A DNA stretch of 64,000 bases from Azolla caroliniana (lineage: Eukaryota; Plantae; Polypodiophyta), in NCBI GenBank assembly GCA_043228905.1, contig JBHGNT010000001.1, forward strand, positions 18,538,001 to 18,602,000. The letters are read 5' to 3'. The notes under the pieces were generated by a model that saw nothing but the letters and a program-made list of their open reading frames with translations, made no database searches and had not been told where the DNA came from. Below are positions 1 through 37,857 of the stretch, piece by piece. How positions within the stretch are numbered: the stretch's first letter is position 1; each line of letters starts with the position of its first letter. Made by a program: the position numbers and the translations under genes.

Positions 1-2956
1 CGACCTTATGATTGTCCTATTGATCTTCAGCCAGGAAAAGATCCACCGTGGGGACCCATTTATAGTTTATCACCTATAGAGCTCAAGGTTCTTCACGACT
101 ATATCGATGAAAATTTAGCTACTGGATTTATTCGTCATTCCAAATCTCCTGCTAGCGCACCAATATTTTTTGTCAAGAAGAAAGATGGATCGCTTCGTTT
201 GGTCGTAGATTATTGAGGATTAAACAAAATCACAATTCGAAACAAGTATGCCTTGCCTTTAATACCAACACTTTTGGAGCGGTTGAGTGGAGCCAAATAC
301 TTTACAAAGATCGATCTTAGAGGTGCTTATAATCTAGTTCGAATTCGTCTGGATGATGAATGGAAAACTACATTTCGCACTCGATATGGGCATTTTGAGT
401 ATACAGTTATGCCATTCGGTCTTACAAATGCTCCTGCGGTTTTTCAGCATATGGCCAATGATATTTTCCGAGACTTCTTGGATATATTCACCATCATTTA
501 TTTGGATGATATCTTGATATTTTCCAAGACTCAAGAAGAGCATGATGAGCATGTACACCAAGTTCTACAATGATTACAAGAATATGGTCTCTATGCTAAA
601 CTCAAGAAATGTAGTTTTGATCGCAACCAAGTGGAATTCCTAGGATACATAGTATCACCAGAAGGAATATCTATGGATCAAGCAAAGGTGCAAACAATTC
701 TAGAGTGGGAAACACCACAATCTGTGCGTGATGTCCAGTGTTTCTTGGGATTTGCGAATTTTTATCGCAAATTCATCAGGAACTACTCAAAGAAGGTGTT
801 GCCTCTTACTCAATTAACACATAAAAACCAACCATTCATATGGAATTCTAGTGTTGTTGAGGCATTCGAAAGCCTAAAACATGCATTCACATCAGCTCCT
901 ATTTTGATCCATGTTGACCAAGACAAGCCTTTTATTTTGGAAGCTGATGCATCAGATTTTGCACTCGGGAGTGTCCTGTCACAACCCAAAGAAAATGGGC
1001 TATTATATCCAGTTGCTTTTCATTCGCGAAAATTTGAAGCCGCGGAAATTAATTATGAGATTCACGACAAGGAGCTTTTGGCTATTGTCGACTCTTTTGA
1101 GCATTGGCGCCACTTCTTGGAAGGTTCTCCCCATCAAATCATTGTCTATAATGATCACAAGAACCTAACGTATTTCCAAAATGCTCGAGTCTTAAATCGT
1201 CGACAGGCACGTTGGGCACAATTTCTTACACGCTTTGATTTCTTGATTGTGTATCGCCCCGCAATACACCAGGGAAAGGCAGATGCGCTATCTCGGCGTT
1301 CATACATGGCACCCTGTTTAGGGGAACCTACTTTTGATCATGAAAAGCAGATCCTCCTTGGTCCTGATCATTTACAAGTGATGGTCACTAATGCTTTTAA
1401 GACACCTACGGACTCGATACTTATAAGTACGATTCGTACTGATCTTGAAGCAGATGAATTTGCCCAAGATGTCTTGAATCATATTATTCTAGATCGTGCT
1501 TCTTGTTCAAGGTCGATGAATTCTCATAAAGATTATAATCAGTTCAGTTGGCATGATAATTTACTTTTTCGAAATAATTTTCTTTATGTCCCTGATGGCC
1601 GCTCTCGACTCCTTATTTTACAACATTGCCATGACATGCCAATGGCTGGACATTTTGGAGTTCACAAAACATTGGAATTAGTTTCTAGAAATTATTGGTG
1701 GCCGCATCTTCGTAATTATGTTGAAAACTACATTCGTAGTTGTGATGCATGTTGTCGGTCCAAGTGTCCTCGACATCGACCATATGGTTTACTCCAACCC
1801 TTACCAGTTCCTGATGGTCCTTGGAAGTCTCTATCTATGGATTTCATTACTGATCTTCCATCTTCCAAAGGTTTTGATTCCATCCTGACTGTTGTAGATC
1901 GGTTCACAAAGATGGCACATTTTCTACCATGCACAAAGACTATTAATAGTCAAGAGACAGCAGATTTGGTTATGCGTGAAGTGTTTCGGCATCATGGTCT
2001 TCCTGATGACATCATTAGTGATCAAGGACCACAATTTATCTCAACATTTTGGAAACACTTGTTTGGGCTCCTCCAAATTGATTGTAAACTCTCGTCAAGC
2101 TATCACCCAGAGACTGATGGTCAAACCGAGCGTACCAATCAAACCGTGGAACAATACCTTCGTTGCTTCATCAATTATCAATAAGATGATTGGGTAGATT
2201 ATTTACATTTTGTGGAGTTTTCTTACAACAATTCAGTTCATTCTTCTACCAAAATTATTCCCTTCTTTGCCAACACGGGTGTTCATCCCCGTTGGACAAT
2301 TCTTGATCATCCAAGAATCTCGAAAAACCCCGCTGCGGAGGATCGCCTAAGTCATATCCAAGAAATTCATATTGCTCTTTCTCATCATTTACATCACGCT
2401 CAAGCCACCCATAAGAAATTTGCAGATCGCCATCAACTTAACTCATCACCGAAAAAACCCAAATTTCAAGTTGGAGACCGTGTATGGCTCTTACGACGTA
2501 ATGTGAAGACCACTAGGCCTTGTAACAACCTAGCTTATCAACGCCTTGGTCCATATTTAATCACTAAATAGATCAATGGAGTTGCTTTTCAACTCGATCT
2601 CCCTCCTCATATGTGTCTTCACCCAGTGTTCTGTGTCTCACTCTTGGAACCTTATACTTCAAACTCTATTCCAGATCGCGTTGTTCCCCCTCCCCCTTCT
2701 ATTGAGCTTTGATGAAGGCCCTGAATATGAAGTAAAATCCATTTTGGACTCCAAAGTTGTGAAGAACAAATTTTATTACTTTGTTGATTGGCTGGGTTAT
2801 ACACCTACGGATCAAACGTGGGAGCCAGCTGAAAATCTCAATAATACCAAAGAACTGGTAGCTGAATTTCATCAACGATATCCAAATAAGCCAACTCCTA
2901 GTTCATGCATTGCGACTCGTGGAACTCGTCGTCAAAGGAAGGGGATAATGTCATGA
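1..2956 (+). pseudogene. Chromovirus pol, interrupted by in-frame stops and a frameshift near the chromodomain
   Basis: ORFs 253-573, 631-2184, 2212-2571 share a frame and are separated by single stops; the chromodomain falls in ORF 2576-2956. Confidence 0.9.
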
Positions 2957-3437
2957 ACATATACCAAAACTCCAAGACTTGTAATAAAGATTCGAACCCA
3001 TGACCTCGTCAAAGATAATATGTAGCTTCAACCATTAGGATACATCATATTACATTTATTGAATTGTAAATTCTTATATTAGATCATGAAGAAATATATC
3101 TAATAGTGTGAAACATTGCCACCGCATAGGCTAACGCATGATTACCAAGTGTCATGCTTGCATGAATGCCAAGTGGCATGCTTGCATGAATGACAAATGG
3201 CGAGCATGCGTGCCTATGAGGTGGCGAGCATGCATGTATCCAAAGCATGCTATATAAACATATAGCGAACTATTGATGAACCATTCCGGTTCAACGCCAG
3301 TCTTCGGCGTACTCTTGTAACCATTGTTCTCATTGCTAATACATTTTCAATATCTTATTTCTCTCTCATTCCTCTCTTATTTTCTATTTCTCATTCTTTT
3401 CTTCATGTTAAACTTGTCTTTGGCTACGGCCCTGACA
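2949..3437 (+). repeat. 3' LTR of the chromovirus
   Basis: Starts TGTCA right after the PPT and ends TGACA; TATATAAA near 3251; CATG-rich ~24-bp repeats at about 3150-3250. Confidence 0.85.
2966..3042 (-). promoter_or_regulatory. tRNA-like Pol III type-2 promoter cassette (A box, B box, T4), antisense within the LTR
   Basis: Minus strand: TATCCTAATGG (3042-3032), GGTTCGAATCT (2998-2988), 44 nt start-to-start, then TTTT at 2969-2966. Confidence 0.6.
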
Positions 3438-11500: not shown

Positions 11501-12525
11501 GATCTGGGCAGGACCACCGGGGTCATGGACCAAGAGGGAAGGAGTTTCCGGAAGGCCGAATCCTCTAGAGCCAGCCACATTGCCGGTCAAATCGGTTCCG
11601 GATGGTCCCGAAAGGGGCCCAGACTCTTGAAGGAAGAGAGCACGCGTGCGTGTATCCACGCAGCCCTCCTATTTGTATATACAAGGCCTCAAAAGAAGCA
11701 CGGGCCATGGCCCGGTCAACCGCACTCGTGCTCACGTACACGCACACACACACACCGACTACAATCGGCGCCATAGCACCAACTCACACGCACACTCCCT
11801 ACCTACGTTGCCTCCCGGGACACATGCACCCACATACGTATGCGGCGTTCGACACAACGCCGGCTCCACGGAGTCCGAACAATGACCTCTCATCGCCAAA
11901 ACTGACAGTCATGAGCACACGGGCTCGCCATCACAAGTGGAGTCTTGCACGGCGGAGAGGGGTTTTCTACACAGAACCTTCGAGCACATGGGCTCGACCT
12001 GAGCAACAACGTGGGACAACAGGGACACAAACAGAGACGCGGGGTGGAGAAGCAATCAAACAAAGAGAAAGAGAGAGAGAAGACAGTCCGCGTATTGTCA
12101 GCCGCAACGAACACACACACTCACTCACGCACAACAAATGAAACCCTAGCAAGAAATAGAAATAGAAACATAAACCTACTTTGAGGGATAGAAAGGAAGA
12201 AACCCAAACAAGAGCAAAATACAATACTATTATGAAGCAAACCCAAAATGGAACCCGTAGAGGGGAACCTATGGAACCTCAAAAATAAGGAACCCTTTTA
12301 CAAGGGACGCTCCCTTCCTTTTATAGAACAAGGAGAGGGATGCATAACAATGTGGGATAAATTCTGCATTACATGGGATTCTCTGTCCCGAATTAATTAT
12401 TGTTGGGCGCCATAAAGGCGCCCTTAGCTTAACACATTTTATACAAGGGTAAGTGTACATGATGCATTGTGCCAATGCCATTAACTTCCCCAGGTTTGTC
12501 ACTATGGTCGTGAATCTTCACAACA
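8531..12525 (-). mobile_element. Non-autonomous Gypsy of the TGTCG family: 5' LTR 11473-12525, 3' LTR 8531-9434, tRNA-Trp PBS, gag relic plus repeats, no pol
   Basis: Paired LTRs; minus-strand PBS TGGTGAACCCGACGTGAA at 11468-11451; PPT GGTTTGGTGGGGCCGGA abutting 9434; gag-like HFNGDGVPR; the 3' LTR lacks about 170-180 bp present in the 5' LTR. Confidence 0.88.
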
Positions 12526-12962
12526 ATGCCAAATTATAAAAGAATACATCTGCAAAAGCGTATGTGTAAGAGCATAGAGTACACAGCTCGGAAGTATGAC
12601 AGTTCCATAAACGCAGAAATCACAGAGAGAGAGAGAGGGAGAGCGAGAGAGAGAGAGGGAGAGCGAGAGAGAGAGAGGGAGAGCGAGAGAGAGAGAGAGA
12701 GAGCAAAACGAAACAAATATTTAGAATAATTCTCTGTATGTTCTCTATACATATTTTGTGCTCAGTGAGCACCTATTATACAAGCCTCGACTATTGGACT
12801 AACACAAGTACTGACAGTACTTGACCGTTCATAAATGAGCCTTCTATACTAACTCCTAAACTATTCCTTAAGAGGAATAACATTCTAACGGCCTTTCGGT
12901 TTAAACACCGCCACGAACATATTTTGTGTACGGTTTTATGCACCCAATATTGAGCTTGTCTC

Positions 12963-13865
12963 TCAACACTCCCCCTCAAGCTCAACTTGAGGTTCTGCAT
13001 GCTCCTCCGGATCTTCGCTCCGGCTTCTCTTGGCTTCACACGTCGCTCGCACTCCTCGACCCGTTCGATTCCGCCCGCTTCGACCCTTCCAGTCGGCTTG
13101 TCTAATCATGTAGCCCTTCTCAGATCCATTGTTGTCGCGGTATTGGCACCTCTTCCACTGCCCTTTCCTCCACTCGGTCCTTAGTTGATTCGGCATGTCC
13201 GAATCGAACATTTCAATTAAATCGGTCACTACCGATTCAATTCCACTTTCGCCCGATTTGGTTGTCTTCAATTTGTCTTCTGTCTTTAGGCCCTTGACAA
13301 CATCACACCACATCTTGGTCTTGGCCTTTACACCCTTCTTCGTAGTATTTCCCCTTTCTTCGACTGTCTTCGGCTCTTCCTTTCGATTACGGCCCTTGTT
13401 TTCTTCTTCGGCTTCTTCAGCCGACCCGAAATCGAATTCTTCATCCGATTCGGCATCGCGGTCACTATCGCTCCTTTCACGCTCTTGTTCATGTCTCCCC
13501 CTCAAGTTCGGGGTGTCGAGGTGATGAAAACCCAGCTCACCTGAGAAATGCCGCAACTTGTTGAGACCAAGGAGCTTGGTGAAGATGTCTGCAATTTGCC
13601 AACCCGTCGGAACATATGCCAGTTCGACTTCACCAGAGAGGACACGCTCGCGGACAAAATGATAGTGCACCTCAGTGTGCTTGGTCTGGGCGTGGAATAC
13701 AGGGTTTTTCGCAAGGTGGATGTTGTAGAGGTTGTCGCAATAGATCATCGTTGGATCGGACACCTCCACATGCAGATCCCATAATAGTTGTTTCAGCCAA
13801 AGGACTTCGCAAGTAGCGACAGTCGCCCCTCGATATTCGGCCTCCGTGCTCGACAGCACCACCAT
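12963..13865 (-). pseudogene. Copia RNase H with a ~180-aa charged C-terminal extension
   Basis: LSSTEAEY...CDN...KH.EVHYHF...ADIFTK, then NLRGR and an E/K/R-rich tail that is open up to the LTR. Confidence 0.8.
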
Positions 13866-15675
13866 CGGCTACTTCTTACTACTCCATGTGATCCCCGCAC
13901 TTCCCAATGAGAAGACATATCCGGATGTGGATCTACGATCGTGGGCATTTCCGGCCCAATCGACATCTGTGTAGCCAATTAACTGTTCGGCTACGCCTGT
14001 ACGATACAACAACGCCATGTCTTTCGTGCCACGGACATACCATAATATTCTCTGCATGCACTAAAGTTGTTCGGTCGTGACTGCGACATAAATTGATTGA
14101 TCATTCCAACCGGATAGCTAAGGTCCGACTGAGTGATCGTCAAGTAGATGAGGCTTCCGACAATCGGTCGAAACCGTGTTGGGTCGCATGCCTTTCTTGA
14201 ATCTCGGCGAAGCTTTACATTTCATCGAGAGGGGCCGAGATGGGCTTACAATTTGCCATCTCGAACGTGAAAAGCATATTCAACGCGTAATGACACTAAC
14301 TAATCAATATGCCTTTGGGGGAACGGATCACTTCGATCCCGAGGAATTAATGAAGGTCTCCAAGATCCTGCATTTCGGAGGATGTCGTGAGTTGAGACTT
14401 GACGCGACCGATTTCTTCCAAGTCGGCACCAGTGATAACTAAATCATCAACATAAAGTAAAAGGCTAACCAGTCCATGTTGACCTTGCCCAGTGAACAGT
14501 GAAGAGTCCGACATGGACGTTGTAAATCCCATTCTACACAACCGTTGTGTAATCTTCACGTTCCAAGCTCGCGGGGCTTGCTTAAGTCCGTATAATGCCT
14601 TCTTCAATCAGCAGACTGCCGAAGTGTTCTGTTCAAATAGAAATCTGGGGGGCTATACACATGTTCCTCAAGATCGCCTTCCAAGAACACATTTTTTACA
14701 TCCATCTGATGTAAGTGCCACCCCTTCACCACTGCTACGGCTCGCAAAACACGCACCATGGTCATCTTCACGACCGATGCAAACATCTCGTCGTAATCTA
14801 TGTCATGCTTCTGCACGTAGCCTTTCGCAACCAAATGGGCCTTATATCGATTGACGAACCCGTCAATGTTGTATTTCACCTTATACACCCATCTACATCC
14901 GATCAGCTTTACACCCTTCGGTGCGTCAACTAGGTCCCAAGTCTCAATGTCCGTTAATGCGCGCATCTCTTCCTCCATCGCGGCACGCCATTTTGCATCT
15001 TTCGCCGCTTCTGCATAGCTCTCCGGCTCACGCACTTCCGCCAGGCGTGTCATGTATGCATAATGATGCGCCATGTACTCATTGTACCCATACCTCTTTG
15101 TGGGGTTCTTCAGGCGGGTAGATCAGAGTAATTCTTGATTACCCAATTTCACGGCCTTTTCGGCCAATTTCGACCATCTCCTCGGTTCTTTATGCGGGGA
15201 CAACACAGTCGAGTCTCCACTACTCGCCGGCTGTTCATTTGGTTGACCATCTCGGCTCAACCCCTCATTCGGCCCGCTTAGCCGAAATGAGATTGGACTC
15301 TCTGTCAAAGCTCCAATTTCCTCATCACGCAGAGGCAGCTCGGCCTCACTAACCTCTTCTTCAAAATTCGGAATGGAGTCATCAAGGATTGGAGGTGAAG
15401 GCAAGTACCACGAAGCAGACTCGTCGAACACGACATCTCGGCTTACACGAACTTCCTTTGTTCGGGGTTTATAACACTTATACCCCTTTTGTTCATATGA
15501 ATAGCCGACCAATATGCACTTTTCGGCTTTGGCGTCCAGCTTCCTTCGTTTCTCCTTCGGCACATGCACGTACACGATGCTACCGAAAATGCTCAAGTGT
15601 GCCATTCTGCAAGTATCCATCCATCTTTATGGCTTCAGCCCAATAAAACTTCTCTTCAAGCATCACCCTAACCGT

Positions 15676-16539
15676 TGTCGTAGTGTAGGTTGCACACTAT
15701 GTGGAAATTATATTTGTGTCCCTCCGGATAGAGAATGGAGTGCTCGGTGAGAACCGGAGGAAAAACGGCATACCGGCAAGGAGGGAAAACGGTATACCGG
15801 CAAGGAAGAAAACGGCATACCGGCAAGGAGGAAAAACGGTATACCGGCAAGGAAGAAAACGGCATACCGGCAAGGAAGAGCCGGATAAAGAGACATAAAC
15901 GTAAAAGAAAAGGAAATACTCAATACTGCGCAGGGCGTGATTCGAACTCTGCACCTCCACGTTGACAAACCCCAACCTTACCATTACATTAACTTATCTT
16001 AAGTGTTTTAAATATAGATTTCATAGGTATAAGACCTTTATTTATGCATACCTTTATTAAAAGGTAAATCGTGTATTTCTTTAATATATGAAAAAGAAAA
16101 AACACGAGACACTAAAAATAACTCATGCACATCTAGCGTGCATGAGCACTATATTTAGCAAATAAAAGCAAGGATTAGAAAAGCATCACATGCATATTTA
16201 GTGTGCATGAACATATGAGAAAAAGCATGTAGCTATGCTTAGTCTCTCCCATCACTATATAAGGATGGGGAGCACATTGTAGTTGTTGTTGATTATTTGG
16301 ATTAAGAATTAATCAATACAAAAATTATTCGTGGGATTGACGATTTATACATCTACTTCTCTCTTAACACCCTAAGTACCAATTAATATAGTATACTCGT
16401 GTGATTCACGAGTTTCTTATCCTTCTCTTTGCTATTTACTCATAATTAATCTCTATCTCACGAACTCCTTTCTCCTAGTCCAAGACCTCTGTGGTTCCCA
16501 CCCGACTCACGCAACGATCCGGAGCCGAAAGGCACGACA
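15676..16539 (+). repeat. 5' LTR with five ~22-24-bp tandem repeats (AAAACGG(C/T)ATACCGGCAAGGA) at about 15760-15880
   Basis: Direct repeat of 22202-23070; CTATATAAGG near 16255. Confidence 0.95.
15903..15991 (-). promoter_or_regulatory. tRNA-like Pol III cassette antisense within the LTR (also present in the 3' LTR at about 22429-22517)
   Basis: Minus strand: TAATGTAATGG (15991-15981), AGTTCGAATCA (15948-15938), 43 nt apart, followed by TTTTCTTTT. Confidence 0.6.
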
Positions 16540-16544
16540 CAAGT

Positions 16545-16562
16545 TGGTGAACCCGACGTGAA
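16545..16562 (+). other. Primer-binding site complementary to the 3' end of plant cytosolic tRNA-Trp
   Basis: TGGTGAACCCGACGTGAA is the reverse complement of ...TTCACGTCGGGTTCACCA (tRNA-Trp 3' end, from recall). Confidence 0.85.
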
Positions 16563-16578
16563 GACGGGTGGCAAGGAG

Positions 16579-18612
16579 ATGGAGGCTCAACAAGCTAACA
16601 ATATGATGGCGATGTTCGAACGGATGCTTCAAGAACAACGCACGATGTCGGAGATTTCGGCATCAGTAGAGCGGCTCGTGCAACGCAACGGGCAATTTAA
16701 TGGTAAGGATGTGTCGCGATATTTGCAGGACTACAAGGCGGAGATGCTCCGGTGCCGGGCTTCGGAAGGACTGCAAGTGACATCCTTTAACCGGGTGGCG
16801 ACCGACGGGCTTCAAGGGAGTATCCACGGGTTGCAACAACAAAATCCGACGTGGGAAGCATTCGAAGAGGCGTTAAAGACCACGTTTGCCATCGAGGACT
16901 CCTCCAAGGCAACGCGGAGGGGATTCGAGGATTGGGTGGAAACGTCAGGTAAGGGGCTGAAGGTCCTCGAAGTGTTTTCGGCATTCGAAAGTCGGTTCGG
17001 GAGGTTGTCCGCGAGAGATCAAACTATTCTTGCACCGGACAAAGTCATCATGTTTTTGCGAGCTGTGGACGTCCGGGACCGGAAAGATCTCGGAGTGCTT
17101 CTTGAGGACACGACCACCGAAAGCGGCCTCACCGAAACATGGGAAAGCGTGCGGGATATCGTCGCGCGGTACACGAAGAGGGGGCAATGGCTTGCCAACG
17201 AAGAAAAGAGGGTTTCGGAACCGATTCCGAAACCGAGAACGGGACTGGAAGACCATCAACCGAGGGCTCGGGAGATTACGGCCGAGAAGGGAGTCGACGC
17301 GTCTACGGTGGAGCAGCTGCTGAAGGAGATGGAGAATCTAAAGATCGCGATGGTGAAGAAGTCGGATGACCGCCCCACAAGCTCCAAATATACGGATCGA
17401 CGGTGCATATGGTGCGATAGCGCCGAACACGATCGGAGGGATTGCGACGACCATAAGGAGGCGCTACGACGGGATCTCATCTACTACGAGGGAAACCGGA
17501 TTCATTCGATGGACTCTCGGAAGCCACTCCGACCGAACTTCCGGAAAGGCGGCATGAAGAAGGTGCTCGAGGAGGAGTTAGCGGCAAGAAGCAACTATGC
17601 GACAACCGCGGGAATATGTGTCGGGGAGTCATCGGGAGCGAAGGCGTCTTTCTGGCCGGAGGTGCTAGGAAACACCGAGAAAACCGACTCCAACGATATC
17701 CGAAACACCGCGGAAGGCGTCCGGGAAGCTACGGGATGGGAGTGCCCTGTCGACAAGAATAGCATATACGCCCTGTGTCAATTACATGAGGTGTATGTGG
17801 ACGAGAAACGACGGCGCACGGAGGATGCGGCCGGACCATCGAAGATACCGGAAAGCTGGAACTCCGGAGGTAAGGGAAAAGAAAAGGCGACTCCGGCATT
17901 CAAGCTCGCCTCGGACATAGAACAACAAACCGACTTGAAAAGAGTGTTCGAGGAAAGAATCTTGGATAGCCGGGTAGATTTTTCGCTGCGGGAACTACTC
18001 GGAATAGCGAAGAAGGAGTTTCACGATCTTCTCGTGGATCTCGTGAAAAGGAAGAGACAAAGTACGGAGGAAAATGCTCCAAGGGTGAATGCAAATACCG
18101 TTTCAATGAACGACACCGAAGTGGAAGGCGAAATTCCGAACTCCCACTATACAAGGCCACACTGGGCACGTGCGACTACGGAGACTCCGGTCCGAATCGG
18201 CAACATCAAAGAACCCGTGCTAGCATTGATTGATCACGGATCGGAGATCAACTTGATGTCCAAGGAGTTCTACCGAAAGGGGAAGTGGCCTATAAACACC
18301 AACCATGGATGGAAGATTCGGGCAGCCACGAAAACGACAGAAGACCTATTTGCGGCTTGTCCGGATGTGACGGTAAAGATCGGGGATGTCGAAATTGACC
18401 AAAATTTCTTTGTGCAGGATGAGGTTTCACATTCTGTCATCCTCGGCCAACCCTTTATCACGGCTTCACGGATGGAGACGAAGGTGCTCGATAGTGGTGC
18501 GGCTTTTGCGCGAATTCGGAGCCAAAACGGAGGGAAATCCGTCCAAACGGTGCCAGCAAATCACGAAAGGAACAAGAGGGAACTCTTGTCCCAAGTGAGA
18601 ATGGATTTTTAA
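16579..18612 (+). CDS. gag: Gag-protease polyprotein
   Basis: Open frame with first ATG at 16579; zinc knuckle CIWCDSAEHDRRDC; aspartic protease LIDHGSEINL...VILGQPF. Confidence 0.9.
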   Translation: MEAQQANNMMAMFERMLQEQRTMSEISASVERLVQRNGQFNGKDVSRYLQDYKAEMLRCRASEGLQVTSFNRVATDGLQGSIHGLQQQNPTWEAFEEALKTTFAIEDSSKATRRGFEDWVETSGKGLKVLEVFSAFESRFGRLSARDQTILAPDKVIMFLRAVDVRDRKDLGVLLEDTTTESGLTETWESVRDIVARYTKRGQWLANEEKRVSEPIPKPRTGLEDHQPRAREITAEKGVDASTVEQLLKEMENLKIAMVKKSDDRPTSSKYTDRRCIWCDSAEHDRRDCDDHKEALRRDLIYYEGNRIHSMDSRKPLRPNFRKGGMKKVLEEELAARSNYATTAGICVGESSGAKASFWPEVLGNTEKTDSNDIRNTAEGVREATGWECPVDKNSIYALCQLHEVYVDEKRRRTEDAAGPSKIPESWNSGGKGKEKATPAFKLASDIEQQTDLKRVFEERILDSRVDFSLRELLGIAKKEFHDLLVDLVKRKRQSTEENAPRVNANTVSMNDTEVEGEIPNSHYTRPHWARATTETPVRIGNIKEPVLALIDHGSEINLMSKEFYRKGKWPINTNHGWKIRAATKTTEDLFAACPDVTVKIGDVEIDQNFFVQDEVSHSVILGQPFITASRMETKVLDSGAAFARIRSQNGGKSVQTVPANHERNKRELLSQVRMDF

Positions 18613-21600
18613 AGCGGACTGTTGCGGAGTGGGGAAGTGATAGTCCGAGAAGCCTTGATACCCCACACAGGAAGAAAACTCTCGGAGCAAAACAAGTACG
18701 AATCGGCCCGGATGGGGCATCTACGTACACGGCCGTAACCGGAGGAATGAAGAAACAATACCGACAAGTGGAGGATAAGTTACGGTCGGCATCAATAATA
18801 AAAGAAGATGAAGAAATCGTGGGAGTGATCGAGGAAGTGTTCTATGGGAATACACTACAACGGCTTGAAGAGCTTGCGGAAGATAAAAGCCAAGGGAACC
18901 GGGTAGTCCCGGTGGAATCGGTCGAGATGTACGAGATCGTTGCGAAAATGGGGCCGGATGCGCTCCGCAAAGAAGAAGCAATGGTAAGTACGAGATACAA
19001 GACCGTGGAGAAAAAGGTGAAACCGGCCGCGGGACCACTACCCGCCGATAGCGAACAAAAGAAGAAAGAAGTCTCGGGAGATCCGACACTTCGGAAGTCC
19101 GTGGATATCGGACATGCCTTCACAGATGAGACCCGGAAGAAACTTCGGATCGGTGGAGGTGGGTTCCTCTTACAAGAAGAAGAAAAACGGTTTCGAGAGA
19201 TGTTGGAGCAACATGGCAAAGCATTCGCGTTCACATCGAGGGAGATCGGATGCATTGATCCAAAGATAGTGGAGCCGATGGTGATTTTCACGATTGATCA
19301 TGTACCGTGGAACCTGAAGCCGATTCCGGTGCCACGGGCGCATATTCCGAAAGTCATCGACTTGCTCAAGGAGAAGGTGGCGATGGGGATTCTAGAGCCA
19401 TCAAGTGCTCCGTACTCAAATCGATGGTTTACGGTTCCGAAGAAGAATGGGTCACTCCGATTCATCCAAGACTTGCAACCGGTGAACAAGGTCACGATCC
19501 GGAACTCGGGAGTCGGTCCGATAGTGGACGAATTCGCGGAAGCTTTTGCCGGACGTGCGATATACTCCATCGGGGACCTATACTCGGGGTATGACCAATT
19601 CCAACTAGCCGTGGAGAGCCGAGACATCACTACCATGCGGACACCGATAGGACTAGTTCGAATGTGCACACTACCACAAGGAGCGACAAACTCGGTTGCA
19701 CATATGATGAACGCGATGAACAAGGTGCTTCGAGATTGCATCCCGGAGATAACGATGCCGTTTCTAGATGACATTCCGATGAAAGGATGCGCGGTGGAAG
19801 AAAAAGATGAGACTATGGATGATCGGGGATGCCGAAAGTTCGTGGTCGACCATATTCATGATTGCGAGAAAGTGTTGCGAAAGCTAGAAGATGTGCACCT
19901 AACACTTTCCGGGGAGAAATCGGCATTCGGGCAAGAAGAAATATTGGTGGTCGGACATCTATGTGGACCCTACGGCCGAAGACCGTCACCAACAAAGATC
20001 GATGCGATTCAAGCTATGAAGGAAGTATGTGAGTCAACATCGGAAGTCCGAAGGTTTCTGGGTGCGTGTGCATTCTATCACATATGGATTCCGCACTATG
20101 CACATATAGCGGACCCGCTCTATCACTTGTTGCGGAAAGGTAAGAAATTCGAGTGGAAACCGGAACACACTAAAGCCATGAGGAAGCTCAAGAAGACACT
20201 ATGGAGGGCGGAATCACTTAAGAAGCCAAGCTACGAGCGGCCAATCATAGTAACGGTTGATACAAGTCCAACCGGTATCGGGTGGGTCATCAATCAAGCC
20301 GACTCGGATGGTTCGCGGTATCCGATCCGATTTGGAGCAAAGGTCCTCAACGAAAGGCAACGCGGATATGCACAAGTCAAAAGAGAATTGTGGGGAGTCG
20401 TGTCGGCGATAAAATCGGATCGGGATTATTTGATCGGAGCTGAAGTGGTGATCGAGACGGATTGTCTTCCGATACTCGGGATGATGCGGTGTTGTACGAT
20501 ACCGGATGTGGCTATGCTAAGGTGGATTGCATATGTCAAGTCACTTAATCCGGAGGTTCGACACATCTCGGGGAAGGACAACGCGGTAGCGGACATGTTA
20601 TCGAGGGCGCGGTTTGAAGACGACATAACCGAATCAGATAATGAAGAAGTTTCCGAAGACTACTTCACATCAGAACACATATGCCGAGTGAACGTGATCC
20701 GAGAATTCCGGGAAGAAGAATACGAGGGGGAAACCTTGATGATCGGGAAGATGCTACAAGAGGTCGAGGATTCAACCAATGATAAAGAAAGGAGAGCCGA
20801 GATCCGAAGGAAGAAGAGGCAAGTCCAAAAGTTCTTCTTGGAAAACGGTTTAATATGGAGGACGCCGAAAAGACCGGATGGGATACCACTTCGAGTAGTC
20901 GGGACGAAAGAGCAACGAAACCGGATAATGTCCGAGTTCCACGAATCCGATTGGGCTGGACATCGAGGAACATGGGCAACTTTTGTGAAAATCAAGCAAA
21001 GATATTGGTGGAAGAACATGTATAAAGATGTCGCGGAGTTCACAGAAAGCTGCGAGAAATGTCAAGTCTACTCCGGGGTCCGACACCGAGATGAGCTGCA
21101 TCCGACATTCTCACCGACAATCAACTTCAAGTGGATGGTCGACATTGTAGCTATGCCGACCGGGATTGGACAAAAGAAATACTTGGTGTTAGCTCGAGAA
21201 GATCTCACAAACCAAGTTGAAGGTCGAGCGCTTCGGAGGAAAACGTGTGCCGCGGTGTGCCAGTTTCTTTTGGAAGAAGTGTTTTGTAGGTACGGCTGCG
21301 TAGGACAAGTGATTGCGGACCGGGGAGAACTCGACTCGGACAAAGCTAGGGGATTCTTCGCCAAACATGGAGTTCGGTTAACGTTGACAACGGCCTACAA
21401 TCCGGAGGCCAACGGGAAGATCGAACGAGGACATAGTCCGATCGTGAAAGCACTTGCTAAGGCATGCGACGGAAGGGTGAAGGATTGGCCACAAATGCTT
21501 CCGTATGCACTATGGGCGGATCGGACGACGCATAGCTCCGTGACCGGTTACATGCCGGCAGAACTCATGACCGGACAAGCACCGGTAATGCCAACGGAAA

Positions 21601-22214
21601 CCGCAATCGCGACATGGACAATACTACCGTGGAAGGAAGAGATGAGCCGGGAAGAACTACTAGCGGTCCGGATACGACAACTGGAGGGAAGACCGAAAGA
21701 TGTAGCGGACGCGTCACGCCGACAACAAGAAGCACGGTTCCGGAACAAAAGCCGGTTCGACACAAAGCACCGACTACGACCGAGGAGGATTGAAGAAGGA
21801 GATTGGGTGATCGTCTATGATAGTAGCTTGGACCATCAACATACAACGATGCGGAAATTCGCGAAAAGGTGGTTCGGGCCGTACGAGGTTCGGAAGGTCT
21901 TCGACAACGGGACGTACCGACTGTCCGAGTTGGATGGAACAATACTACGAGTGCCTATAGCCGGGAAGCGGGTGAAGATTTTCAAGAAGCGGACCGACGA
22001 CAAACCTTATGTGATCCAAGTCGAGGCCGACAACGAGGAGCAATCGGACGAAGACCACAATGATGCGGGAAGCGAAGAAAGTGGATTACAACTCATAGTC
22101 GACATAAGGGGAGAATCGGAGGAAGCTTCGGATGAAGACGGATACGAAGAATCAAGAACTTCGGCACATACCGGAGGATGTGCGGGTTTGGAGGGGGCGA
22201 GTGTCGTAGTGTAG
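18603..22214 (+). CDS. pol: Pol (RT-RNase H-integrase) in the -1 frame relative to gag-pro; first ATG at 18747
   Basis: RT DLYSGYDQ, LPQGATNS, PFLDD; RH VDTSPTGIG, ETDC; IN H..DWAGH...CEKC, VD...DRG...E, WFGPY; the frame is open from 18603. Confidence 0.93.
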   Translation, partial: GFLKRTVAEWGSDSPRSLDTPHRKKTLGAKQVRIGPDGASTYTAVTGGMKKQYRQVEDKLRSASIIKEDEEIVGVIEEVFYGNTLQRLEELAEDKSQGNRVVPVESVEMYEIVAKMGPDALRKEEAMVSTRYKTVEKKVKPAAGPLPADSEQKKKEVSGDPTLRKSVDIGHAFTDETRKKLRIGGGGFLLQEEEKRFREMLEQHGKAFAFTSREIGCIDPKIVEPMVIFTIDHVPWNLKPIPVPRAHIPKVIDLLKEKVAMGILEPSSAPYSNRWFTVPKKNGSLRFIQDLQPVNKVTIRNSGVGPIVDEFAEAFAGRAIYSIGDLYSGYDQFQLAVESRDITTMRTPIGLVRMCTLPQGATNSVAHMMNAMNKVLRDCIPEITMPFLDDIPMKGCAVEEKDETMDDRGCRKFVVDHIHDCEKVLRKLEDVHLTLSGEKSAFGQEEILVVGHLCGPYGRRPSPTKIDAIQAMKEVCESTSEVRRFLGACAFYHIWIPHYAHIADPLYHLLRKGKKFEWKPEHTKAMRKLKKTLWRAESLKKPSYERPIIVTVDTSPTGIGWVINQADSDGSRYPIRFGAKVLNERQRGYAQVKRELWGVVSAIKSDRDYLIGAEVVIETDCLPILGMMRCCTIPDVAMLRWIAYVKSLNPEVRHISGKDNAVADMLSRARFEDDITESDNEEVSEDYFTSEHICRVNVIREFREEEYEGETLMIGKMLQEVEDSTNDKERRAEIRRKKRQVQKFFLENGLIWRTPKRPDGIPLRVVGTKEQRNRIMSEFHESDWAGHRGTWATFVKIKQRYWWKNMYKDVAEFTESCEKCQVYSGVRHRDELHPTFSPTINFKWMVDIVAMPTGIGQKKYLVLAREDLTNQVEGRALRRKTCAAVCQFLLEEVFCRYGCVGQVIADRGELDSDKARGFFAKHGVRLTLTTAYNPEANGKIERGHSPIVKALAKACDGRVKDWPQMLPYALWADRTTHSSVTGYMPAELMTGQAPVMPTETAIATWTILPWKEEMSREELLAVRIRQLEGRPKDVADASRRQQEARFRNKSRFDTKHRLRPRRIEEGDWVIVYDSSLDHQHTTMRKFAKRWFGPYEVRKVFDNGTYRLSELDGTILRVPIAGKRVKIFKKRTDDKPYVIQVEADNEEQSDEDHNDAGSEESGLQLIVDIRGESEEASDEDGYEESRTSAHTGGCAGLEGASVVV

Positions 22215-23070
22215 GTTGCACACTATGTGGAAATTATATTTTTGTCCCTCCGGATAGAGAATGGAGTGCTCGGTGAGAACCGGAGGAAAAACGGCATACC
22301 GGCAAGGAGGGAAAACGGTATACCGGCAAGGAAGAAAACGGCATACCGGCAAGGAGGAAAAACGGTATACCGGCAAGGAAGAAAACGGCATACCGGCAAG
22401 GAAGAGCCGGATAAAGAGACATAAACGTAAAAGAAAAGGAAATACTCAATACTGCGCAGGGCGCGATTCGAACTCTGCACCTCCACGTTGACAAACCCCA
22501 ACCTTACCATTACATTAACTTATCTTAAGTGTTTTAAATATAGATTTCATAGGTATAAGACCTTTATTTATGCATACCTTTATTAAAAGGTAAATCGTGT
22601 ATTTTTTAATATATGAAAAAAGAAAAGAAAAGAAAAACACGAGACACTAAAAATAACTCATGCACATCTAGCGTGCATGAGCCCTATACTTAGGAAATAA
22701 AAAAAAAGCATCACATGCACATTTAGTGGACATGAACACTTTTTGTAAAAAAAAAAGCATGAAGCCATGCTTAGCTCTTCCTTCCTTATATAAGGAGGAG
22801 AGAAATATGTATATGGTTGTTGATTATTTGGATTAAGTATTAATCAATACAAAAATTATTCGTGGGATTCACGATTTATACATCTACTTCTCTCTTAACA
22901 CCCTAAGTACCAATTAATATAGTATACTCGTGTGATTCACGAGTTTCTTATCTTTCTCTTTGCTATTTACTCATAATTAATCTCTATCTCACGAACTTCT
23001 TTCTCCTAGTCCTAGACCTCTGTGGTTCCCACCCGACTCACGCAACGATCCGGAGCCGAAAGGCACGACA
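22202..23070 (+). repeat. 3' LTR of the intact Gypsy
   Basis: TGTCG...CGACA; direct repeat of 15676-16539. Confidence 0.95.
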
Positions 23071-26000
23071 CCGTTTCTTCGATTGTTTGATTCTTCCATT
23101 CAGCTACGCCATTCTGCTTTGGCGTATATCTACACGAGAATTTGCATCGAATTCCCTCCTTCTGTAGGTAACTCGTGAACTGGTCGAAGAAGTACTCCTT
23201 CCCACCATCGGACCATAGGCACTTGATCTTTCGTTCAGTTTCCCTTTCCGTAAGGCTCTTCACCTTTAGGAACCACGTGAAGACTTCGTTCTTTTTCACG
23301 ATCAAGCATGCCCAGGTGTGCCGAGTGAAGTCATCGATGAAGGTTAATTAAGAAGTAACAACTACTACCGAAGCTAACGTTTTGTGTCGTTCCCCACACA
23401 TCCGAATGGATCACATCCAACGGATTTCGACTACGATTACGCTCATTTAAGAATGGAAGTCGGTGTTGCTTCCCTAGTTGGCAGGCTTCACAGACTTCAC
23501 CATTATGACCCGAAATTTTGGCAACCCGAAAACAATATTTTTCGTCTTCATTTCACGAAGGCGTGGGAAGTTAACGTGGCCGAACCACTCGTGCCATAGG
23601 TCGATATCCGATTTGACCTTCTGTCCTTTCGTGAACAATGCGGTCCCGACTTGATTGGTGTTGAGGATGAACATCCTCCCTTCATAGCGTCCCTGCGCGA
23701 TAACGTGGCCTTCCTCTTTGATGTAGCACCTAAGGTGCGTGAATCGAACTTGCATCCCCTAGTCGACGATCTGACCGACCAACACCAGGTTCTTAGTTAT
23801 TGTCGAAACGTGCAACACATTCATAAGTTTCCCTTTCTGCCCGACGTGGCTGAGAGGAACTTCTCGGACATGTTCGATGGTATGCGGAGTGTCATCTCCT
23901 GTTTCGGCCACTCCTTGTTTTTCCGGTTTCTCCAAGTACGAGAACCATTCCTCATGACTTGTCATATAATTTGACGCTACAAAATCAACATACCACACCT
24001 CCCTTAGTTTCGAGGTGTTCACAACCATCGAATTAGCCTTGTGCTTCATTACGAAGGTTGGGCCCGATCAACATCGACTGAAGCTCGAAGAACGAAGGCG
24101 TATTCTCCCTTGTGCAGACTGCCGTTCAGAATGCTCCGAACTTTGATGCTAACCCTCCAAGACAAACCTGCACCATTTCTTCCTCCTCGACTTTCACGTT
24201 CATGGAGGGGACAGAGTCACATATCTCCTTGATTCGGGCCATGTAATCGGCCATAGATAAATCTTTCTGTCGGACATTGTTGAGCTCTTGCCTGAGCTGG
24301 AGCTTCCTGGTCCTTGTGCTAGCGGCGAAAATTCCCTTGAGATTTGCCGACGCATCCTTTGGCATCTTGGCATCTTGAATGTAGCTCAAGAGCTAGTCGC
24401 TCTACTTGCCGCTTGTTCCCAAGCTGAAAAATCTTTGTTTGTTTATTCGGGCATTGTATCATTAGCTCCTTCGACATAACTCCAGTAACCATGACCAAGC
24501 AGGTACGGGTGCATCTTGTATGACCAAGACGCGTAGTTTCCCCTGTCAAGCTTCTCAGTTGGTAGCGAGCTTCCCATTCCTCTGTTCATATTGATGTCTT
24601 ATCCTTGGCTTTTCTGTCGGTTGCAGAGGAGTCTCAACCCTCGCACTCTGAAGAAATCACAAAGAAAGAGAGGGAGAGACAAAGAGCAAAATGAAACTAT
24701 ATTCAAAGTAATTCTCTGTACATATTTTGTGCTCAGTGAGCACCTTTTATACAAGCCTCGACTATTGGGCTGACAGTACTTGACCGCTCAAAAATGAGCC
24801 TTCTACACTAACTCCCAAAACTATTCCTTAAGAGGAATAACGTTCTAACGGCCTTTCGGTTTAAACACCGTCACGGCCATATTTTGCGTACAGTTTTACG
24901 CACCCACTCTACATATTGGGTTATGCACCCATTTACGCACCCAATGTTGAGCTTGTCTCTCAACACAAATCATGCATCGGCTAGGAAACACTTCTGGTGT
25001 GAAATTACAAATGCATTACCAAACGTGTCTCATTGGTCTGTTGCAAGGGATTTTAATATGCTTGAGGACCCGGAGGATAGGAAAGGTGGGAGTGTGGCAA
25101 CAATTCATGGGGAGGAACTAACAGTCTAGGAACGATGTGTTTGAAATTAAGTATTTTGGATGCATGGAATATGCCTAATGTTTATAGATCTCAGGATTCC
25201 TTGAACTTCTCATGTTCTGATAGGAGAATTGGTGGAACCAATCTTTCAAGATTGGATAGATTTTATGTGGGGGAGGCCTTTGTCTTAAATGGGGGAAATA
25301 TCACGATTATGACAGGCACAACTTTCTCTTATCATGCTCCTATTATATTGAGAACCTTTGGTCAATCGAAAAGGGAGTTCATACGATTTAGGATACCCGA
25401 AAAAGTAATGTTAGAAGATAGATGGTATAATCAAGTGATAGATATTTGGCGGAACAAAGATAATATGGATGTTCCCATTACAATCAAAGTGGATTGTGCT
25501 TTGACGAAGATATCACAATATTTTACGTTAAAATCAAGATCTGAATTTATGGAATATCAGGAGAAGGAAAGAAGGATGAGGGCAAGGTTGATATCTTTGC
25601 AAAGATTGCAATAGGATCGCCCAAAGTGTGCATGGGTAGTTTCGCATCTTGAAGAAGCCCGAAAATAGGTTCAACATATGGAAGAATGTCGTAGTCAATT
25701 TTGGTATCACAATTCTACTTCAAGATGGACACAAATTGGGGATAGTACAAGCTAATTTTTTAATATTAAAGGCCCTAAGAGAGTCTCTAATGTAACCTAT
25801 TGTCTACAGAATGAAAATGGTGAACTTGAAATGGGGCCAAATGTTGTGAGGGAAATTGCCACGAAATTCTATGCTACCCTTCTATCACAAGAGCCTATTT
25901 CTAAGTATACCAGACAAAATAGAATGAAGGTATGGGCGGAAATTCAACCCAAGGTTACTCAAGCAATGCAAGATTCATTGATGTCACCTATTACAGAATT

Positions 26001-34909: not shown

Positions 34910-35735
34910 TACACAAATGCATATATACATACAAAACACACAAAAAAATTATATATTATATATATATACATAGACATACATATTAATACCTAAGATTACA
35001 TATTATATGTATACAAATCTTCATTCTTACAAACAAGTTACATATACTACATATATATACATGCGCACACACACATAAATAAATTACTTATTACATAGCA
35101 TATAGTCCATACCTATTACACATTATACAAATTTACACACACATACATAAAGTACACATATACATATATAGTTGCATACATGGATATATTACATATGTAC
35201 ATAAATATTCCATATATCACCATATATATAGATTATACGGGACCATACAAACCACAATACTTACATATATACATACGCCACACACACACATTAGATATAT
35301 GTATACTTACACATACATTGGATATATACATGCATATTACGTACATATTACAAACATACATCCATATACAAGCCATATACATACTAAACATGAAAATATC
35401 CCAAAAATATACATGCATAAATACATTACATATATACACATACATACATTCATACATTTGCATACATATCACTGCATACACACACACATATACATGCACA
35501 TACATACATTAGATATATACATACATATTATGCACATATTACAAACACATTCATACTCATTGAATCATGTATATTGACATATACATATATACATACACAT
35601 ACATACATTACATATGTACATACATATTCCACATATCACAATATATATACGTTCATATGCCTACAATGTTATATGCTTTACAAACATACATCCATACACA
35701 TATATACATACATTAGATACATGCATAAATACAAT
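34910..35735. repeat. TA/CA-rich low-complexity field replacing part of LINE ORF2
   Basis: Degenerate (TACA)n/(TA)n/(CA)n with the recurrent motif CATTGAATCATGT. Confidence 0.85.
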
Positions 35736-36484
35736 CAGTTGGGCCGATTGCATGCATCTATTGTAGTTGTCAGATGGAGACATTAAAACATTGCTTGTGG
35801 GAATGTCATGTTACACAACAAGTTTGAAGACGAGTGTTTCGAGTTCTAGCCTTTATGTTTAGGGATTGCAGTTTTTCATGGGGTATGGTAGTATGGGCTA
35901 TAGTGACACAAATGATGTGGCCATATGAGGCATGTCCAAATGACACGATTATTTGAATTCAAAGAGGAATGATAATGGTGGTGCAACGAAGTCATATGGA
36001 AGGTCTGTACATGTTAAAGGCAATGCAAGAAGTATGGGAGCTATTATGCACCATCACAATGTGGTTTATTTGGATTGCTAGGTGTTCTAAGGTGTCTGGT
36101 AATACTAATGTGCAGCTAGTGGAAAGTGTACGGAATGTTTGGATGGAGATGGTGCATACCTTCAAAGGGCGGTATGAGGATATTAAAGGTGAGACAAATG
36201 TTGCAGTGTTGCAACGCCTTGAATGTATTGCCTATTGGAAGAAGGCCTCGTTTCTCACATTACAAAATTCAAGACCCAAATGGTGCTTAGCACCACAAGT
36301 ATGGTTGTTCCCACCACCAATCACATAACTTGGTTAAGGAGTGGTGGATTGTTCATACTATTTATCCTTGAGGGATGGGACCTAAGGAAGAATGCAACAT
36401 ATCAATGGTAGCTTGATGGTAGGTTAGCTTTATTGTAATAATTGTTCATAACTAATGAAAGGATATTTTCTAGGAAAAAAAAAA

Positions 36485-36933
36485 TACATATATTACATAT
36501 GTACAAACATATCATCATAAACTACAATACGTACATATATGCATACACGTACATAAATATTATGAACTCACATCCACACACTCATGTATGCATATATGCA
36601 TACACGTTTTCACATACATTACATATTACATATATACACATATGTACATTCATACATGTGCATACATACATTGCATATGCATATATTACAATCACACATT
36701 CATATACATTGAATCATGTACATTGACATATGCATATATGCATACACATGCATACATTACATATGCATACACATATGTACATTCGTACATGGACATATGT
36801 ATAGGCTATATTCATGTATACATTGCTACATATACATACATTATACATAAATATTATGCACATACTACAATCACACATCCATACACATTGAATCATGTAA
36901 ATTGACATATATGGATATATGCATACACATCAT

Positions 36934-36964
<31 letters not shown>

Positions 36965-37857
36965 TACATAAATACATAAATACATGCATGCATGCATGCA
37001 TATATATACATACATACATTACATATGCATACGGATATGTACATTCGTACATGGACATACATATAGTCATTTATAAATTGCTACATTGACATACACATAT
37101 ATACATTATACACACACACACACACACATACATATATACATAAATAAATAAATACGTAAATACATGCATGCATATATATACATACATACACACACACACA
37201 CACACATACATAAATACATAAATACATAAATACATACATACATTACATATGCATACGGATATGTACATTCGTACATGGACATACATATAATCATTTATAA
37301 ATTGCTACATTTACATACACATATATACATTAGATATATACATAGATATTATCCACATATTACAATCACACATCCATACACATTGAATCATGTGCATTTA
37401 CATATGCATATATGCATACACATACATACATACATACATACATACATACATACATGATATATGCATATATGCACACACATATGTACATTCATACATGAAC
37501 ATACATATAGTCATGTATACATTGCTACATGTACTTGGTTATATGGACATTACATGCATGCATACACATACATACATTACATATGTATATTACATACATA
37601 CACATACATACATATCCCCAAATACACACACATGATCATACACACTACAATAGTACATATACACATACACATACATATATTAGATAAATACATACATATT
37701 ATGCACATATTACAAACAAACATCCATACACATACATACATTAGATATATACATACATATTATGCACATATTACAAACACACATCCATAAACGTTGAATC
37801 ATGTGGAATATGTACATGTACATTGACATATGTATATATGCATAAATATACATACGT
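36485..37857. repeat. TA/CA-rich low-complexity field with longer internal duplications
   Basis: (CA)n and (CATA)n runs; recurring CATTGAATCATGT and ATATGTACATTCGTACATGGACATA blocks. Confidence 0.85.

Follow-up and report, generated by a model that had tools for sequence, protein, structure and literature searches.

Conserved A-box/B-box modules of predicted tRNA-type Pol III promoter character in the LTRs of two Gypsy lineages

Short modules composed of an A box and a B box at tRNA-gene spacing recur in the LTRs, and at the strict level never in coding DNA, of two unrelated Gypsy lineages, where they occur in both orientations. The modules are real and conserved, and their distribution is wider than first observed in the window, by which we mean the whole 64,000-nucleotide stretch of Azolla caroliniana DNA that was analysed. 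Judged by their sequence, they are predicted type 2 (tRNA-type) Pol III promoters and not tRNA genes, having a B box, an A box, a spacing of 43–44 nt, an AT-rich upstream region and a downstream T run. The reading we favour, at a probability of roughly 0.55, is that each is a tRNA-gene-derived module that has kept its fixed spacing and lost its fold, and that would offer TFIIIC, TFIIIB and Pol III a landing pad on the DNA, holding the Pol II core of the LTR open.

The carrier elements and their modules in the window

The principal carrier is an intact Ty3/gypsy element whose two LTRs (15676-16539 and 22202-23070) have TG..CA ends and whose gag and pol frames are uninterrupted. Its parts, all on the plus strand, are as follows.

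15672..15675, plus strand: left target site duplication CCGT, a sequence that fits NCGN
15676..16539, plus strand: 5' LTR of the Phygy-like Gypsy element, 864 bp, TG..CA, from LTR comparison
16124..16209, plus strand: CATGCA/TGCATG (RY-like) cluster, putative Pol II enhancer core, from a motif scan
16255..16264, plus strand: TATA-like motif, predicted LTR Pol II promoter, from a motif scan
16450..18612, plus strand: gag-protease open reading frame, 720 aa from stop to stop
16545..16562, plus strand: primer binding site, 5 nt past the 5' LTR, common to most relatives
18495..22214, plus strand: pol frame with RT, RNase H and integrase, without chromodomain, in the -1 frame relative to gag
22190..22199, plus strand: polypurine tract of the Phygy-like element, from the sequence
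22202..23070, plus strand: 3' LTR of the Phygy-like element, 869 bp, from LTR comparison
23071..23074, plus strand: right target site duplication CCGT, matching the left copy

The primer binding site, which we take to be of the tRNA-Trp type, is separated from the LTR end by five bases (16540-16544), a gap that varies from about 0 to 8 among relatives. Both the RY label of the CATGCA/TGCATG cluster and the meaning of the RY motif are likewise our assumption. The CCGT duplication (NCGN type), the absence of a chromodomain and the short interior filled by the coding region fit the Phygy clade, of which an NCGN target duplication and a compact build are traits (Neumann 2019, PMC6317226; of this and the other papers cited, parts are drawn on here), and we therefore term the element Phygy-like, the clade being assigned by traits and not by an RT/RH/INT phylogeny against reference Phygy elements. 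Its nearest named proteins are those of the liverwort Riccia sorocarpa, with at most 67% identity over an integrase piece. Its family is very abundant in public sequencing runs (as contigs, probably of DNA), and no relatives were found in viral contigs. The element is nested inside a minus-strand Copia-type element (12300-24900), and the window as a whole is a nest with further Copia and Gypsy pieces (28983-55500) and CATA-type microsatellite arrays (34960-37820).

Differences between the two LTRs are concentrated in one block (16079-16307 versus 22605-22838), with about 54 alignment columns inside it, two differences before it and four after it; over 15676-16078 the LTRs differ at only two positions. 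This RY/TATA block looks as if it had been swapped between subfamilies by recombination or conversion, so that whole-LTR divergence would overstate the age of the element. Short tandem repeats of about 18–21 bp at the 5' end of U3 (15756-15880) are absent in the diverged organism D.

The module parts, together with the chromovirus LTR that holds a further copy, are given below.

15981..15991, minus strand: A box TAATGTAATGG, tRNA positions 8-19, matching 7/8 scored positions
15939..15948, minus strand: B box AGTTCGAATC, tRNA positions 52-61, matching 8/8 scored positions
15953..15957, minus strand: GAGGT, tRNA variable-loop positions 43-47 by tRNA-register alignment, with G46 at 15954
15903..15911, minus strand: T4-C-T4, predicted Pol III terminator, 27 nt past the B box (T4 at 15911-15908 and T4 at 15906-15903)
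15998..16035, minus strand: predicted start (~15998) and AT-rich upstream region, a putative TFIIIB seat suggested by tRNA-gene layout
22429..22517, minus strand: second module copy, by sequence match, in the 3' LTR (A box 22517-22507, B box 22474-22465, T runs 22437-22429)
2949..3437, plus strand: 3' LTR of an unrelated chromovirus, whose chromodomain lies at 2711-2905
2989..3042, minus strand: antisense module in the chromovirus LTR, the third pattern match (A box 3042-3032, B box 2998-2989, T4 2969-2966)

The first-pass annotation had described, on the antisense strand of both intact Gypsy LTRs, an A box followed at 43 nt by a B box and then by T4 runs, all of which we found; in the 5' LTR the distance is 43 nt from first base to first base. 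This module is provisionally placed in U3 because of the TATA-like motif at 16255. Its A box TAATGTAATGG departs from TRGYNNARNNG at a single position, having A for G at position 10, and both the lack of G10 and a terminator of only T4-C-T4 weaken the case for the window module as a Pol III site. The predicted terminator is T7 in L001, a near-identical relative of the window element (L numbers designate loci among the relatives), and an ACT motif upstream of the module (16004-16002) is common to six of six aligned LTRs. That the cloverleaf stems are not retained, as had also been stated, was confirmed in that ARAGORN identified 0 tRNA genes in the window, there was no Rfam tRNA match at E<=10, and the module RNA folds no better than shuffles (z +1.18, +0.28 and +2.12). 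A degenerate A+B pattern, written after the site had been seen and with position 10 left free, gave three matches in the window versus 0.04 expected, and 0 of 100 shuffles reached three, the two LTR copies representing one event. Just upstream of the predicted Pol III start is a block (16033-16070) with an imperfect palindrome at ~16055-16070; this block is not common to L002, L063, L064 and L027, and 16033-16067 is the best-covered part of the stretch in organism D.

The third match, with an A/B distance of 44 nt, belongs to a chromovirus whose pol has 21% identity to that of the Phygy-like element. Like the Tcn1 clade, it has a chromodomain and a non-seed-plant context (PMC6317226), and it is probably Tcn1-like. 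Its 3' LTR also has an RY-rich palindromic block and a TATA motif, and related LTRs start with the module in L029 (~3826) and L073 (~1660).

Recurrence, layout and conservation of the modules

To identify relatives of the window element, metagenome contigs were scanned and the best 80 of 256 loci were taken, with pol identities of 51-99%, from which 63 LTR segments of at least 200 bp were delimited, the window's two included and many of them incomplete. Boxes were scored against the type 2 Pol III promoter consensus, TRGYNNARNNG for the A box and GGTTCRANYCY for the B box (PMC12498455). When a strict B box was selected alone, a good A box (at least 7/8) lay upstream in 25 of 41 matches in LTRs and in 0 of 33 in coding DNA, and all 25 pairs, redundant copies counted, were spaced at 43 or 44 nt where 11 distances (38-48) were permitted. 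At a joint score of at least 15/16, 27 modules were identified in 21 of the 63 LTR segments, compared with a mean of 0.17 in shuffles (30 shuffles, maximum 1) and 0 in 297 kb of coding DNA. The contrast was weaker at the relaxed level of at least 14/16 (33 LTR modules versus 2.5 in shuffles and 25 coding matches), and our conclusions use the strict level only; the looser pattern also matches coding DNA in L044-L047 and L012, at other spacings. Since the modules share ancestry, p-values for such counts overstate their independence.

A sequence-only profile built from 24 modules was used to search 515 kb, training sequences included. It gave 47 matches. Of these, 41 fall in LTR segments and none in coding DNA; two lie where chromovirus-like LTRs start (L029, L073), the short 3' LTR of L028 holds one, and three were not assigned to an LTR (L080, L022, L038). 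These three of 47 also constitute the result of a check for free SINE2 copies outside LTRs, to be read with the element-centred nature of the contigs searched. In L080 (1361-1435) the module lies between (GT)n/(GA)n microsatellites, ~270 nt upstream of a guessed LTR start; it could stand free, or the LTR could be longer and include it. The profile had no match in the Copia elements of the window. ARAGORN found 0 tRNA genes in all 60 loci scanned (60 of the 80 relatives), and Rfam gave no tRNA match in the window or the relatives, the only hits being sub-threshold miRNA-like matches on RY palindromes.

The carriers are spread over a quick RT tree, with 71-99% RT identity to the window element, and have one to three full modules per LTR. 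Among LTRs of relatives that are complete or guessed to be complete, 10 of 21 have a module at E<0.01; the 11 of 21 that have none fall in a few clades, and the module is thus dispensable for whole lineages. Two variants of partial structure were also observed. A B-box-like motif with no A box lies ~60 nt before the primer binding site, in U5, in L022 (915 and 7433), L025 (2723) and L070 (2540), which belong to lineages lacking the U3 module, and in L072 (3283-3395) the B-box half of the module alone is tandemly duplicated.

Seven of the 22 distinct modules are in sense orientation and the remainder are antisense. Of 15 antisense modules, nine have a T4 run at 12-45 nt past the B box (null 3.7) and one has T4 inside the unit (null 7.2), while in the sense modules a terminator T4 is not enriched (2 of 7, null 1.1). 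The region from -35 to -20 is more AT-rich than the LTR in 21 of 22 modules (0.74 versus 0.61), and predicted RNA lengths are mostly 83-90 nt. Plant tRNA genes likewise have an AT-rich upstream region and a downstream T run (PMC13437025). In L040/L072, L015 and L036/L037 the modules follow an outward-facing plan, in which the RY cluster (together with TATA where it was found) has antisense modules on its 5' side and a sense module on its 3' side; L006/L007 fit this plan by weaker profile matches, bringing the total to four lineages. Other layouts depart from it, namely a single sense module upstream of TATA in L008/L010, two antisense modules in L033 and possibly a convergent pair in L027, and the window element has the 5' antisense module only.

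The first-pass annotation had raised the question of whether the boxes are better conserved than neighbouring LTR bases, and the answer depended on the distance compared: they are between diverged sister LTRs, but within the family and its close kin there was no contrast. In motif-blind global alignments of sister LTRs, 201 of 231 box positions were identical (87%), versus 703 of 969 (73%) in the flanks and mid-spacer, figures that come from 11 module comparisons in 10 of 12 pairs, two redundant or non-sister pairs having been excluded beforehand, and the pairs being non-independent. Identity was 90% in the B box and 84% in the A box, with a poor B-box match (6/10) in the L008-L010 pair. Within the family and close kin the test was neutral, with variant sites at 4 of 32 spacer bases and 4 of 21 box bases. 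Public runs of four organisms contained no B-box variant at 8% or more, and had A-box variants at positions 10, 12, 13 and 15, organism D having T at A-box position 10 in ~39% of its depth; 6 of 25 listed contig pieces from the public runs begin exactly at the last B-box base. By eye, an alignment of six LTRs shows the same blocks: the B box with an upstream AGGT, the core of the A box, a spacer that varies in sequence but not in length, and a trailer rich in T.

Conservation extends to positions that were unused in selecting the modules. In the 22 distinct modules these are G46 (22), T47 (20), A44 (19) and G45 (19), followed by a pyrimidine at position 33 (22), A38 (18), T20 (17) and A21 (15), all of which we take to be conserved loop positions of tRNAs. 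G46 is invariant in 24 of 24 aligned modules, whereas among the B-box matches in coding DNA only 7 of 23 have G there. The stems present a different picture, as cloverleaf pairs form in 48.2% of cells versus 47.7% when shuffled; pairing is commoner in the T helix (60.8%), owing largely to the invariant G53-C61 and to G-U pairs, and RNAalifold on the aligned modules gave 0 consensus pairs. Loop positions are therefore kept with stems at chance, which argues that the modules descend from tRNA genes, and the persistence of motifs and spacing without stems argues that selection has acted on DNA motifs and their spacing and not on RNA structure. The tauB part of TFIIIC encloses the B box and the DNA upstream of it via winged-helix domains (PMC11811891), and this upstream contact could explain the conservation of G46.

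Origin of the module and comparison with known systems

Although a tRNA-gene ancestry is indicated, the more specific origins between which the first-pass annotation had wavered, tRNA-Trp and tRNA-Asp, found no support: the A at position 10 is peculiar to the family, G being present there in 20 of 22 modules, and the TGTCA motif is absent from sister families. With G10 and varied spacers in the wider clade, no isotype of origin can be named. Trailers are alike between lineages that have 70-79% RT identity, and this suggests that U3 cassettes have been exchanged or that the sequence is deeply conserved. U3 segments of L063 (3295-3545) and L027 (5990-6240) resemble window positions 15880-16130 despite 73-79% RT identity and membership of other clades, a likeness for which exchange of U3 cassettes is a possible cause.

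Host Pol III promoters in LTRs were invoked by the first-pass annotation as a precedent, and such promoters are indeed known; the closest case, however, is Helenus, which is of the tRNA type, and not Cassandra, which is of the 5S type. In Helenus (TRIMp3), as in the present case, both LTRs hold a tRNA-like stretch whose conservation is highest around boxes A and B, no functional tRNA is present, and the source may have been a SINE2 insertion (PMC10886601). Helenus elements are non-autonomous and 311-1263 bp long, whereas the window carrier is a 7.4-kb protein-coding Gypsy element with a TATA motif, and their promoter is proposed to make template RNA, whereas the modules described here are mostly antisense, end at T runs and are present in one to three copies (PMC10886601). 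For autonomous elements the same paper anticipates dependence on Pol II; among plants it reports Helenus from Selaginella only, it retained only elements of less than 1 kb, and it remarks on tRNA-like pieces in a fair number of Repbase LTRs (Kojima 2024, PMC10886601). Cassandra TRIMs resemble our case in that an internal promoter of host Pol III has been co-opted into plant LTRs, but there a 5S (type 1) promoter replaces the Pol II promoter of a non-autonomous element, whereas in the present LTRs the predicted promoter is of the tRNA type (type 2) and accompanies that of Pol II instead of displacing it (PMC10853983, PMC12786077).

Foamy viruses are autonomous retroelements whose LTRs contain Pol III units with A and B boxes and T terminators (PMC3993851, PMC7693620), but these units make structured pri-miRNAs, in contrast to the modules here, which have no hairpin and are in tRNA-gene register (PMC3993851). 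With the barriers formed by tDNAs and ETC sites the modules share only the proposed mode of action, since those are known from host chromosomes of yeast and human and not from retrotransposon LTRs, and ETC sites are without TFIIIB and Pol III, whereas the modules keep an A box, an AT-rich upstream region and a terminator (PMC12409998). A mosquito Gypsy element has a tRNA dimer at its LTR/PBS junction (PMC3286476). The parts drawn on of the survey of the Phygy and Tcn1 clades (PMC6317226) and of the Tcn1 paper (PMC2864245) make no mention of tRNA-like modules in LTRs, and in the full-text literature, with subscription journals and Repbase entries lying outside it, we found no report of conserved A/B modules in the U3 of plant Gypsy elements that are autonomous. 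That LTRs can contain Pol III promoters is a known theme, on which conserved tRNA-type modules beside the Pol II promoter of an autonomous Gypsy element may be a new variation, and the supplements on Helenus may list related cases.

Proposed function and alternative explanations

TFIIIC is anchored by a B box before it finds the A box (PMC11811891), and if the module is a DNA landing pad for Pol III factors, TFIIIB and Pol III would in this way be recruited to the LTR. Because the module is oriented away from the Pol II core, the predicted seat of TFIIIB would fall between module and enhancer, while transcription by Pol III would proceed outwards and end short of the LTR edge. The bound factors would keep the enhancer and TATA region open and shield it against the surrounding silent chromatin, with a short (~85-90 nt), unstructured, U-ended RNA as a by-product. 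TFIIIC binding, the by-product RNA and the barrier role are all steps that we infer from the sequence. The idea of an insulator, already put forward in the first-pass annotation, fits the layout of the four lineages in which the RY/TATA core is flanked on either side by modules that face outwards. Known barriers of this kind are from yeast and animals, tRNA genes and TFIIIC-only sites blocking the spread of heterochromatin in yeast and human (PMC12409998), and our literature search found no evidence of such barriers for plants.

The same first-pass annotation had offered a functional antisense RNA as its other candidate role, and this is disfavoured by our results. In its broader form, the RNA product would itself matter, a short antisense Pol III RNA tuning silencing or serving as a source or decoy of small RNAs, and there is a complete unit to make it, with a terminator and, in most antisense modules, no internal T4, as well as a precedent in the Pol III units of foamy-virus LTRs (PMC3993851). 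We nevertheless consider it unlikely, as there is no hairpin or shared fold, spacer and trailer sequences differ between lineages, and 7 of 22 modules are in sense orientation.

It is improbable, too, that the modules are passengers, that is, a tRNA pseudogene or SINE2 head that came into an ancestral LTR and has been shuffled with U3 blocks while decaying. Their patchy presence (10 of 21 complete LTRs), the tandem duplication of a module with its flanks in L036 and the U3 blocks that are alike between lineages of only 70-79% RT identity would all be expected of passengers, and Kojima notes many Repbase LTRs with tRNA-like pieces (PMC10886601). Decay, however, should affect loops and stems equally, yet the stems are at chance and the boxes, G46 and the 43-44 nt spacing persist; in addition, box conservation exceeds that of the flanks, and the boxes are kept in duplicated and inverted copies. 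As a description of how the module originated, the passenger reading may be correct.

Similarly low odds attach to the possibility that the module is no barrier but activates the LTR's Pol II promoter directly, through loading of TFIIIB/TBP or a nucleosome-free region. TFIIIB would be placed between the module and the RY/TATA core, the sense modules of L008/L010 are upstream of TATA, and the segment just upstream of the window module (16033-16067) is the one best covered in organism D. Against this, the window module is 270-320 bp from TATA, and modules are also found downstream of TATA (L040, L072). Activation and barrier action are hard to separate by sequence.

Far less probable is a promoter for genomic RNA of the Cassandra/Helenus type, or a relic of the element's own primer tRNA left by reverse transcription. 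The tRNA-like boxes are in both LTRs, as in Helenus, and the element has a tRNA primer binding site, but the module is directed away from the interior of the element, a T4 run follows at 27 nt, and the sense strand has T5 at 17053-17057. The occurrence of the same module in the LTR of a chromovirus argues against a primer relic, since Tcn1 elements are reported to prime themselves without a tRNA (PMC6317226). Chance resemblance, which the short, degenerate motifs and the lack of Rfam or ARAGORN support might have favoured, is refuted by the fixed spacing and LTR-only location.

Three further ideas were set aside by reasoning. A splice-donor reading of the GGTAAG/AGGT motifs explains neither the B box nor the fixed spacing; mimicry of an m7G46-type tRNA by the RNA, for which RAGGU would be the label, needs a tRNA fold, which is absent here; and bait for Pol III-targeting integrases was dropped as nothing was in its favour.

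Taken further, the reading of the module as a landing pad for Pol III factors leads to a bolder and more tentative proposal, which we regard as possible and hold with some doubt. In two unrelated lineages, autonomous Gypsy elements may have converted tRNA genes into TFIIIC/Pol III fences devoid of RNA structure, placed around the element's own Pol II promoter so as to insulate it from host silencing, the U3 cassettes being gained, duplicated, inverted, swapped and lost, with G46 and its neighbours, which lie outside the A and B boxes, critical to the promoter. If so, these would be promoter-critical bases that real tRNA genes hide behind RNA structure, and the modules represent a natural experiment in which the constraints that act on a tRNA gene as DNA are separated from those that act on its RNA. 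Autonomous LTR retrotransposons must remain open to transcription within methylated chromatin dense in elements, and if they protect themselves at specific sequences with Pol III factors borrowed from the host, that would be a new answer to the question of how they do so. The lineages with zero to three modules make the proposed role directly testable. Were the proposal true, candidate barriers would also be spread across the genome with every insertion and solo LTR.
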